Assembly: GCF_056712565.1 (NCBI RefSeq)
Contig: NZ_CM160072.1
Strand: one strand, 5' to 3'
DNA: 64,000 nt
Below are positions 12,001-15,000 of the stretch, piece by piece. Made by a program: the position numbers. Position 1 is the first letter of the stretch, and each line of letters begins with the position of its first letter.

Positions 12001-15000
12001 GCGCTTGCATGGTAATGGTGTTCTCTTCCATCAGGTAAGCGATACACGGGTTAGAGTTAATGACGATTTCATAGGCTAGTCCTTGCTGACCGTGCTTATA
12101 CAGCCGTTCAGTCTCGATAAACTTTTTACCGAATGACCAGTGCGGATAGTTAATTGGCATGCCGACGCTGGAGTAGGCATCCATCATCTGTTCTGAGGTT
12201 ATCACTTCAATCTGGTGCGGGTAGGTATCCAGCCGGTAGAGTTTCGCCACCCGGTCTATCTCTGCCAGATAAACATCCAGCAGGTCGAACGTCCAGTCGG
12301 GTCCATCGCTCAAACGTGTGGTGTCCTTATTCATAGAATCGATCGTCGCCATACGCGCACCTCATTGTTGTCGGCGCTCTCTGTGTGGAGCACCTCATTT
12401 CAAGCATAGAACACCTGTTAAAAACCGCGTCGCCGGAGAATTTTTTTCTTTGCGATTTCTTATTATCAGAGTGCCACTAATCCGCTTCTGAACGGAATTT
12501 TATGCTGGATAAAAAGGGCGTTCAGCAGGAGATACTAAAGACGCCATATTGCCGCAGAGTCAGGGAGATGTGAGCCAGCTCACCATAAAAAAGCTGTATG
12601 TTGAATAATATTTTCAACTGAGTTATCAAGATGTAATTAGATTATTGTTCTTTTACTGTATCTACCGTTATCGGAGTGGCTATGCGAGTTGTCATACTGG
12701 GAAGTGGTGTGGTAGGCGTTGCCAGCGCCTGGTACTTAAATCAGGCAGGACATGAGGTCACCGTCATTGATCGGGAGCCGCCCTGGAAACCAGTGCCGCG
12801 AATGCAGGGCAAATCTCCCCCGGATATGCTGCACCGTGGGCGGCACCAGGTGTGCCTTTAAAAGCGATTAAATGGATGTTCCAGCGCCATGCGCCGCTGG
12901 CGGTTCGTCTCGACGGTACGCAGTTCCAGTTGAAATGGATGTGGCAAATGTTACGTAACTGCGACACCAGCCACTATATGGAAAACAAAGGGCGGATGGT
13001 GCGTCTGGCGGAATACAGCCGTGATTGCCTGAAAGCATTGCGCGCCGAAACCAATATTCAGTATGAAGGGCGTCAGGGTGGGACGCTGCAACTGTTCCGT
13101 ACCGAACAACAGTATGAAAACGCGACCCGCGATATCGCCGTGCTGGAAGATGCCGGCGTACCGTATCAGCTGCTGGAATCCAGCCGCCTGGCGGAAGTGG
13201 AGCCCGCGCTGGCAGAAGTGGCGCACAAACTGACGGGCGGCCTGCAACTGCCCAATGATGAAACCGGAGACTGCCAGCTGTTTACCCAGAATCTGGCGCG
13301 GATGGCGGAGCAGGCGGGGGTTAAATTCCGCTTTAATACGCCCGTTGACCAACTGCTTTGCGACGGCGAGCAAATCTACGGCGTGAAGTGTGGTGATGAA
13401 GTGATTAAGGCCGATGCGTATGTGATGGCGTTTGGTTCTTACTCGACGGCGATGCTCAAAGGCATTGTTGATATTCCGGTGTATCCGCTGAAAGGCTACT
13501 CGCTGACTATTCCGATTGCGCAGGAAGATGGTGCGCCGGTGTCTACTATCCTTGATGAAACCTACAAAATCGCCATTACCCGTTTCGATAACCGCATTCG
13601 TGTTGGCGGAATGGCGGAAATTGTTGGCTTTAACACCGAGCTGTTGCAACCGCGTCGTGAAACGCTGGAGATGGTGGTTCGCGATCTCTATCCACGCGGC
13701 GGTCATGTTGAGCAGGCGACTTTCTGGACTGGCCTGCGCCCGATGACGCCAGACGGCACGCCGGTTGTCGGGCGTACACGCTTTAAAAATCTGTGGCTGA
13801 ATACCGGTCACGGCACGCTCGGCTGGACGATGGCTTGCGGTTCCGGTCAGTTGTTAAGCGATCTGCTCTCGGGGCGCACGCCAGCGATCCCGTATGAAGA
13901 TCTAAGCGTAGCGCGCTACAGCCGTGGATTTACGCCATTACGCCCGGGCCATTTACATGGCGCACACAGCTAAGGAAACGAGATGACCCGTCCGATACAG
14001 GCCAGCCTCGATCTGCAGGCATTAAAACAGAATCTGTCCATTGTCCGCCAGGCCGCGCCGCGCGCGCGCGTCTGGTCGGTGGTAAAAGCGAACGCTTACG
14101 GGCACGGTATTGAGCGTATCTGGAGCGCGATCGGGGCTACCGATGGCTTTGCATTGCTTAACCTGGAAGAGGCAATAACGTTACGTGAGCGCGGCTGGAA
14201 AGGACCGATCCTGATGCTGGAAGGATTTTTCCATGCTCAGGATCTGGAGATTTATGACCAGCACCGCCTGACCACCTGCGTACACAGCAACTGGCAGCTC
14301 AAAGCACTGCAAAATGCGCGGCTAAAAGCACCGTTGGATATTTATCTTAAAGTGAACAGTGGAATGAATCGGTTGGGCTTCCAGCCCGATCGCGTGCTTA
14401 CCGTCTGGCAGCAGTTGCGGGCGATGGCGAATGTTGGCGAAATGACCCTGATGTCACATTTTGCCGAAGCGGAACATCCTGATGGAATTTCCGGCGCGAT
14501 GGCGCGTATTGAGCAGGCGGCGGAAGGGCTGGAGTGTCGGCGTTCGTTGTCCAATTCGGCGGCGACTCTGTGGCACCCGGAAGCGCATTTTGACTGGGTT
14601 CGGCCTGGCATTATTTTGTATGGCGCTTCGCCGTCCGGTCAGTGGCGTGATATCGCCAATACCGGATTACGTCCGGTGATGACGCTAAGCAGTGAGATTA
14701 TTGGTGTCCAGACGCTAAAAGCGGGCGAGCGTGTGGGCTACGGCGGTCGCTATACTGCGCGCGATGAACAGCGAATCGGCATTGTCGCCGCAGGATACGC
14801 CGACGGTTATCCGCGCCACGCGCCTACCGGTACCCCTGTTTTAGTGGACGGCGTTCGCACCATGACGGTGGGGACAGTCTCGATGGATATGCTGGCGGTC
14901 GATTTAACGCCTTGCCCGCAAGCGGGTATTGGTACGCCAGTTGAGCTGTGGGGCAAGGAGATCAAAATTGATGATGTCGCCGCCGCTGCCGGAACGGTAG

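Follow-up and report, generated by a model that had tools for sequence, protein, structure and literature searches.

Does the Escherichia coli strain represented by contig NZ_CM160072.1 still encode a D-amino-acid dehydrogenase, or has its dadA gene been lost? The question arises within a 64,000-nucleotide (nt) stretch of this contig (the window, that is, the whole stretch analysed), where dadA is 7 nt short and leaves its reading frame inside the region for the flavin adenine dinucleotide (FAD)-binding N-terminus. An original prediction, made from the sequence of the window, had proposed that dadA is either a pseudogene or the product of a sequencing or assembly error. The evidence presented here favors, with a probability of roughly 0.85, a genuine and evolutionarily recent loss-of-function mutation that arose by slippage in an extraintestinal E. 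coli of the sequence type 95 (ST95) kind. Beyond what had been predicted, the deletion is recurrent across lineages yet absent from 5,421 complete RefSeq genomes.

Structure of the dadA lesion

Alignment with reference dadA sequences had been named as a check in the original prediction. Compared with strains UTI89 and ExPEC XM (ExPEC, extraintestinal pathogenic E. coli), the window dadA has exactly one 7-nt gap and is otherwise the identical gene. The proposed 7-bp frameshifting deletion in the FAD-binding region is thereby borne out, as is the claim that the gene is exactly 7 nt shorter than a 432-codon dadA (1,292 against 1,299 nt). The intact arrangement GGGA-GCCG-GGG-GCCG-CCC becomes GGGA-GCCG-CCC in the window, where positions 12760-12790 read GATCGGGAGCCGCCCTGGAAACC. 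On the 3' side of the gap, the dadA DNA equals that of ExPEC XM.

The open reading frame (ORF) starts at ATG 12682, with GTG 12676 as a possible alternative start. The frame is lost after codon 34 (…VTVIDREP), and 25 residues that do not belong to DadA follow before a TAA stop codon at 12859-12861. Translation of 12783-12881 in another frame yields the native DadA continuation. Both the premature stop and the displaced continuation had been foreseen, and they agree with the ORF list and this translation, respectively. The longest ORF with a start codon in the remainder of the gene runs from GTG 12852 to 13973 (373 codons), and its first in-frame ATG is at 12876. The lesion has the structure of a frameshift pseudogene: the length of the indel is not a multiple of three, it leads to an early stop, and neither the gene nor the 41 kb that follow contain a compensating indel. 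The promoter and regulatory region of dadAX lies in the ycgB-dadA intergenic region, which precedes the gene (Table 1). Downstream, dadX was expected to be intact; its ORF is complete and identical to that of relatives in which it is annotated as dadX.

The lost block is one unit of an imperfect repeat

The intact site reads AT-CGGGAGCCG-GGGGCCG-CCC and contains an imperfect 7-bp tandem repeat, CGGGAGCCG / CGGGGGCCG. At an offset of 7 nt the repeat matches itself at eight of nine positions (CGGG, then A or G, then GCCG), and eight of nine bases are G or C. A GC-rich, slippage-prone repeat had been predicted here; the repeat context is confirmed, while the codons are CCG GGG GCC GCC (P-G-A-A) and not CCG GGC GCC GCC.

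The deletion removes exactly one 7-nt repeat unit, and its junction k-mer is ATCGGGAGCCGCCCTGGAAAC. Because the deleted block sits between two copies of GCCG, it can be placed in five equivalent ways (GCCGGGG … GGGGCCG). A deleted block that equals one repeat unit, with a breakpoint that is ambiguous within shared bases, is what is expected at a deletion hotspot. The microhomology at the junction comprises 4 perfectly matching nt plus 4 matching bases past one mismatch. Microhomology of at least 4 nt accompanies 2.6% of the possible 7-bp deletions in dadA and 1.75% of those across the 64-kb region. Because the first unit keeps its A, the crossover is placed in the 3' GCCG run. We infer from this pattern the signature of slipped-strand mispairing: during replication, the nascent strand would slip between the units CGGGAGCCG and CGGGGGCCG, and one unit would be lost.

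Rarity and independent recurrence

The complete RefSeq E. coli set comprises 5,426 genomes, and the dadA region was found in 5,421 of these with queries of 401 nt and of 101 nt across the junction. None of the 5,421 has the deletion; all carry the extra 7 bases, and the intact form is therefore universal in this set. The best identities, 98.3% for the 401-nt query and 93.5% for the 101-nt query, are the values expected for a 7-nt gap alone, and no 100% match to the window was found among the 5,426 genomes.

The allele is nevertheless on record elsewhere. The exact 59-aa frameshift product is encoded on 7 Logan contigs, compared with at least 1,000 contigs for the intact ST95 allele alone. Loci from runs SRR22784710 and SRR26133594 have the same two-ORF layout and zero single-nucleotide polymorphisms (SNPs) relative to the window over 3-4 kb, and a third, noisier run, SRR22784611 (contig L025), also has the deletion. 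Clustering of the 59-aa product at 90% identity brought in variants that share the REPPWKP junction and differ in their downstream residues. In total, approximately 34 contigs carry five 59-aa variants.

Examination of the junctions in the fetched contigs placed the same 7-bp deletion on at least eight groups of haplotypes (window, L004, L005 and L025; L006, L007 and L008; L011; L009 and L010; L012; L013; L014; L026). These groups are 10-92 SNPs apart over 4 kb, with lineage-specific SNPs at -135, +15, +27 and +63 nt from the junction. Over 4 kb, L014 and L009 each equal intact complete genomes of their own, different lineages, save for the 7-nt gap (7,356 bits; 4,001 query bases against 4,008 record bases). 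Within the 4 kb compared, the gap is the sole indel of most deletion contigs, among them the window and those derived from isolates; this does not hold for the low-coverage metagenome contigs L007 and L008 and the noisy run L025.

A single origin, spread by descent or recombination, was considered and rejected in view of the up to 92 SNPs per 4 kb, the lineage SNPs near the junction and the matches of L014 and L009. Because lineage-specific SNPs flank the junction so closely, an imported recombination tract would have to be tiny. Occurrence on at least eight haplotypes, two of which equal their intact kin apart from the gap, is the independent recurrence expected of a hotspot, and the sequences compared indicate that the same deletion arose independently in several E. 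coli lineages. The events appear to be young, because all of the carriers checked match intact relatives exactly or almost exactly.

A real mutation or an error in the record

The alternative offered by the original prediction is a sequencing or assembly error. In a wider form, which also takes in consensus polishing and deliberate editing, the gap would exist only in the record, and dadA would be intact in the living strain. The quality of the surrounding sequence bears directly on this. The best matches of segments 1-24000, 24001-49000 and 49001-64000 are K1 strains of the ExPEC and avian pathogenic E. coli (APEC) groups. The top-matching strains are UTI89, S88, APEC O1, IHE3034, ExPEC XM, APEC E18055 and a strain named ST95-32; from their names we take these to be ST95-type, and the window is labeled accordingly.

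A base-by-base comparison with ExPEC XM across the 64 kb revealed zero differences in 1-12780. Beyond the 7-nt gap there are three SNPs (26271, 26708 and 49831) and one other indel, a single nt at ~54466 in narK, where the window has C5 and ExPEC XM has C4. The narK of ExPEC XM is flagged as frameshifted in RefSeq, and the window has the intact form (~54460-54470, CCCCC against CCCC). APEC E18055 is a perfect match to 24001-49000. Apart from the dadA gap, the window shows no trace of indel-type sequencing noise across 64 kb.

An error would be consistent with the absence of the deletion from complete RefSeq genomes, with a GC-rich site that contains a G5 run and with the probable error-type 1-bp indels that other public contigs have within the same 60 nt; in addition, the window is known from its assembly alone and not from its reads. 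Against this stand a 64-kb sequence otherwise free of indels relative to close relatives, which retains an intact narK where ExPEC XM has a homopolymer frameshift, and the nature of the lesion itself. Errors do not usually take the form of a clean loss of 7 bp between direct repeats of 4 nt, and only 1.75-2.6% of random 7-bp deletions have such microhomology. The identical lesion on the identical haplotype occurs in at least two clean, separate runs, plus the noisier SRR22784611, and the deletion is found in clean assemblies of at least seven other haplotypes that come from different pipelines (Logan, ENA and NCBI). An error in the record is thus disfavored and improbable. A homopolymer read error in particular was rejected: 7 bp are lost, the 64 kb of the window are otherwise free of indels, and the 1-bp G5/C5 lesions of other public contigs are mostly accompanied by several further 1-bp indels, which is mostly not the case for the 7-bp deletion.

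Lesions other than the 7-bp deletion are also found in public contigs within dadA 12772-12830 (codons ~31-50). These are G5 to G4 (L018), G5 to G7 (L023), C3 to C2 (L016), C5 to C4 at CTCCCCCGG (L015, L019, L020, L021 and L024) and a 19-bp deletion (L017). Among the contigs with 1-bp losses, L015, L016, L020, L021 and L024 have several further 1-bp indels and broken neighboring genes. Most of the other lesions in these 60 nt, including those five, are probably read errors; L019, L023 and L017 are cleaner and may carry real lesions.

Several points weigh against a real slippage mutation. The window might share its clone, or even its project, with the Logan runs, and it was assessed from the assembly rather than from reads. 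Contigs L006-L008 come from metagenomes at only 2-3x coverage. The reciprocal +7 duplication product was absent from a 15-billion-protein collection in an exact look-up of one allele, and the alternative deletion with a crossover in the 5' CGGG (…IDRGPPWKP…) was not found in a look-up of two allele backgrounds. Both products might have been expected if slippage were simple and symmetric, though a reciprocal gain of a unit is supportive of, and not required for, a slippage hotspot.

A true pseudogene is favored over an error because the window is clean of indels, a 7-bp loss is an atypical error, independent runs share the haplotype and the deletion recurs in clean assemblies. On these comparisons the deletion is very likely real, and of the two options in the original prediction the pseudogene is much the likelier.

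Predicted consequences for DadA and the operon

The NCBIfam model for DadA is NF001933, with a cut-off of 383 bits; the family also belongs to Pfam PF01266 (DAO). Intact DadA (432 aa) scores 755 bits over model positions 1-419. The 59-aa fragment scores 54 bits, below the cut-off, over positions 1-33, and the 373-aa ORF scores 620 bits over positions 61-419. Positions 34-60 are in neither ORF, and no single polypeptide spans the model end to end. The GxGxxG beta-alpha-beta FAD-binding motif (GSGVVG, residues 7-12) is confined to the 59-aa fragment, and the 373-aa ORF starts at native residue 60. The FAD-binding fold is accordingly not contiguous with the substrate/catalytic domain; the catalytic part is undamaged in the 373-aa ORF but lacks the N-terminal FAD-binding fold. 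By orthology and synteny the locus is dadA, and its predicted product is not a complete DadA.

The nearest solved relatives of DadA are glycine oxidases. The lost stretch aligns with the conserved ASEASKAAAGLL segment of 7cyx and pairs with a conserved E-x-S-x-A-x-AG stretch of these enzymes. Because of this pairing, the lost stretch is taken to be a conserved part of the FAD domain.

Ribosomes would be out of frame after codon 34 and would stop 25 codons on. The FAD fold (residues 1-34) and the remaining protein would share no reading frame, and residues 35-59 would not be encoded in frame. Because no single ORF contains both the FAD-binding fold and the catalytic domain, DadA should be null, and dadA is very probably inactivated. 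The strain would make no active D-amino-acid dehydrogenase and would be unable to oxidize D-alanine, or L-alanine after racemization by DadX, to pyruvate. Mutants in dadA do not use D- or L-alanine as a carbon source. Though dadX is structurally intact, its expression may drop through Rho-dependent polarity; such an effect is possible because ~1.1 kb of poorly translated mRNA precedes the gene.

Function could be retained if ribosomes regained the frame between 12781 and 12859 through a shift of -1 or +2, or if translation reinitiated at GTG 12852 or ATG 12876. Some termination-reinitiation is conceivable, since the last codons of the short ORF overlap GTG 12852 and its stop comes 7 nt later, and against the DadA model the 373-aa product retains a score of 620 bits. 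That product would, however, lack model positions 1-60, including the GxGxxG fold, and should be unable to bind FAD. An AGG lies just 1 nt before GTG 12852, too near to act as a Shine-Dalgarno sequence. A reading by eye of the 78-nt out-of-frame stretch 12781-12859 turned up no slippery heptamer of the canonical X XXY YYZ type, and the gene is in frame in all 5,421 genomes, which argues against a conserved recoding site. Programmed ribosomal frameshifting is likewise not supported, as orthologues are in frame and no heptamer was seen. A functional gene is very improbable, and rescue by recoding or reinitiation was rejected on sequence grounds.

Mutational hotspot or selection

On the favored reading, the deletion owes its recurrence to a mutationally hot site, and each occurrence looks young and rare, as expected of a neutral to mildly deleterious pseudogene. 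Recurrence could instead reflect positive selection for loss of DadA in some niche, with the repeat acting as a mutational fuse. Loss might, for example, raise the pools of D-alanine and other D-amino acids or alter alanine flux in the host. An identical loss-of-function allele on at least eight haplotypes, and further lesions clustered in the same 60 nt, are consistent with such selection.

A control scan covered the first 450 nt of 53 genes of the region for repeats with at least 8/9 self-match at offsets not divisible by 3. Exact deletion products were predicted for eight sites in non-essential neighboring genes and looked up in the public collection; this look-up is allele-specific and of low power. 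Predicted products were on record at three of the eight sites, in ycgM, ycgB and a gene for a class I S-adenosylmethionine (SAM)-dependent methyltransferase (Table 1). The repeat in the methyltransferase gene is an imperfect 8-bp repeat, CCGTCGCG / CCGCCGCG, as GC-rich as the dadA site; its 8-bp deletion is either a recurrent frameshift allele or one inherited by a lineage. Exact look-ups did not find the predicted products at umuD, nhaB (two sites), dadX or narX. As far as these sequences indicate, repeat-mediated deletions are a general, detectable background process, and selection on dadA need not be invoked, because comparable control repeats show predicted deletions.

A study of 1,200-day stationary-phase cultures reports four independent mutations in the ycgB/dadA intergenic region (PMC7858067). 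These repeated hits to the dadAX control region in long-term stationary phase suggest that selection can act on the operon, though on its regulation and not by way of its loss. Selection for loss is nevertheless unlikely. The allele is very rare, in none of 5,421 complete genomes and on ~34 contigs against at least 1,000 for one intact allele; carriers are identical or nearly identical to intact kin, which speaks for young events that are not spreading; and control repeats in unrelated neighbors behave alike at 3/8 sites, including 52 contigs at the equally GC-rich one. Most of the nearby lesions look like read errors, and full-text literature searches returned no report of adaptive dadA loss in E. 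coli, nor any description of this allele or of recurrent dadA loss. The stronger proposal, in which the 7-bp repeat is a recurrently used off-switch and DadA loss is selected in host or clinical niches (through D-amino-acid pools or alanine sparing) as a convergent adaptation across at least eight lineages, is more doubtful still.

Genomic neighborhood

The window is E. coli chromosome from minE through narI. The local gene order, according to the ORF list and annotated relatives, is fadR, ycgB (minus strand), dadA, dadX and cvrA (minus strand). The dadA-dadX operon thus lies between ycgB and cvrA, the order found in annotated relatives and the context expected of DadA. Features of the locus and the control repeats with recorded deletion products are listed in Table 1.

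Table 1. Coordinates of the dadA locus and of control repeats in the window
Feature	Position	Strand	Remarks
dadA	12682..13973	+	1,292 nt; intact form 1,299 nt (432 codons plus stop)
5' dadA fragment	12682..12861	+	34 native codons, 25 out-of-frame codons, TAA 12859-12861 (ORF list)
Deletion junction	12772..12780	+	One repeat unit left, CGGGAGCCG; break anywhere in GCCG 12777-12780
dadA remainder, native frame	12783..13973	+	LETSAANAG… to stop (ORF list and translation)
ycgB-dadA intergenic region	12353..12681	+	Unchanged relative to ExPEC XM
dadX	13983..15053	+	Catabolic alanine racemase, second gene of the dadAX operon; 356-aa ORF, intact
ycgM, control repeat	3965-3978		5-bp deletion product on 1 public contig; window intact
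ycgB, control repeat	~11905-11920	-	7-bp deletion product on 2 public contigs; window intact
Class I SAM-dependent methyltransferase gene (22654-23466), control repeat	~23157-23173	-	8-bp deletion product on 52 contigs (NCBI and Logan); window intact

A remnant of hlyE (hemolysin E) at ~5180-5507 on the minus strand is annotated in relatives as frameshifted and without its N-terminus, and the window is identical to these relatives. The cvrA gene (15110-16846, minus strand) is an unbroken 578-codon ORF with a TTG start, and Logan gene calls also give 578 aa. RefSeq lists the cvrA of UTI89 and ExPEC XM as an incomplete pseudogene without its C-terminus, and a hypothetical coding sequence (CDS) of 171 nt overlaps its 3' end. 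This discrepancy may be an annotation artifact or a lineage-specific change of the C-terminus.

Of the three SNPs that distinguish the window from ExPEC XM, 26271 is intergenic and 26708 is in codon 520 of treA (W520 in ExPEC XM, C520 in the window). Because APEC E18055 is perfect over this segment, these two separate sub-lineages and are not private to the window. SNP 49831 is a synonymous C-to-T change relative to ExPEC XM in ychN (minus strand). In 49001-64000 the best complete genomes are each one mismatch from perfect; if that mismatch is the same across genomes, 49831 is probably a private SNP of the source strain.

Significance

The dadA of the window is nothing out of the ordinary: a strain-level pseudogene whose site is a minor, recurrent hotspot of deletion, and a new allele within a thoroughly familiar class. 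It does not challenge current understanding, and its value lies mainly in annotation and in one metabolic prediction. For annotation, the two ORFs call for a single entry, a frameshifted dadA pseudogene, in place of two genes. The predicted defect of the strain is an absence of D-alanine catabolism, of L-alanine catabolism via DadX and of oxidation of other D-amino acids. Exact predicted slippage products at GC-rich repeats of two units are recoverable from public assemblies, as at dadA and 3/8 control sites, and such look-ups are a cheap way to distinguish real recurrent indel hotspots from homopolymer read errors.

Comparison with known systems

The classic slipped-strand (Streisinger-type) indel hotspot is reportedly the threefold CTGG repeat in E. 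coli lacI, described by Farabaugh, Miller and co-workers in 1978. As at hotspots of the lacI type, one unit is lost at dadA, the breakpoint is ambiguous, the allele recurs independently and the result is a frameshift null allele. Unlike these, the dadA site has two units that match imperfectly (8/9), and public data show the deletion only, with no +7 gain.

Laboratory dadA null mutants of E. coli K-12 and Salmonella are said to have been obtained by Franklin and Venables in 1976 and by Wild and Klopotowski in 1981. The lesion described here affects the same gene and operon (dadAX, between ycgB and cvrA), and by analogy the phenotype of those mutants would be expected, in which neither D- nor L-alanine supports growth as a carbon source and D-amino acids are not oxidatively deaminated. 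In contrast to the laboratory mutants, this is a natural allele in the background of a pathogenic lineage.

Strain-level pseudogenes of E. coli and Shigella, annotated as 'frameshifted' CDS by the Prokaryotic Genome Annotation Pipeline (PGAP), likewise result from a single small indel in a conserved core gene whose flanks equal those of intact relatives. The narK frameshift in ExPEC XM and the hlyE remnant are examples from this neighborhood. The dadA allele differs from the usual case in being homoplasic across lineages and not private to one clone.

Phase-variable loci of Haemophilus, Neisseria and Campylobacter share with dadA a repeat-mediated frameshift that turns a gene off. In contrast to these contingency loci, dadA has no multi-unit tract: the event reduces two imperfect units to one, which leaves no tract that could re-expand, and all 5,421 complete genomes are ON and none OFF. 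From this arrangement, the dadA event is best seen as one-way decay and not as a switch.

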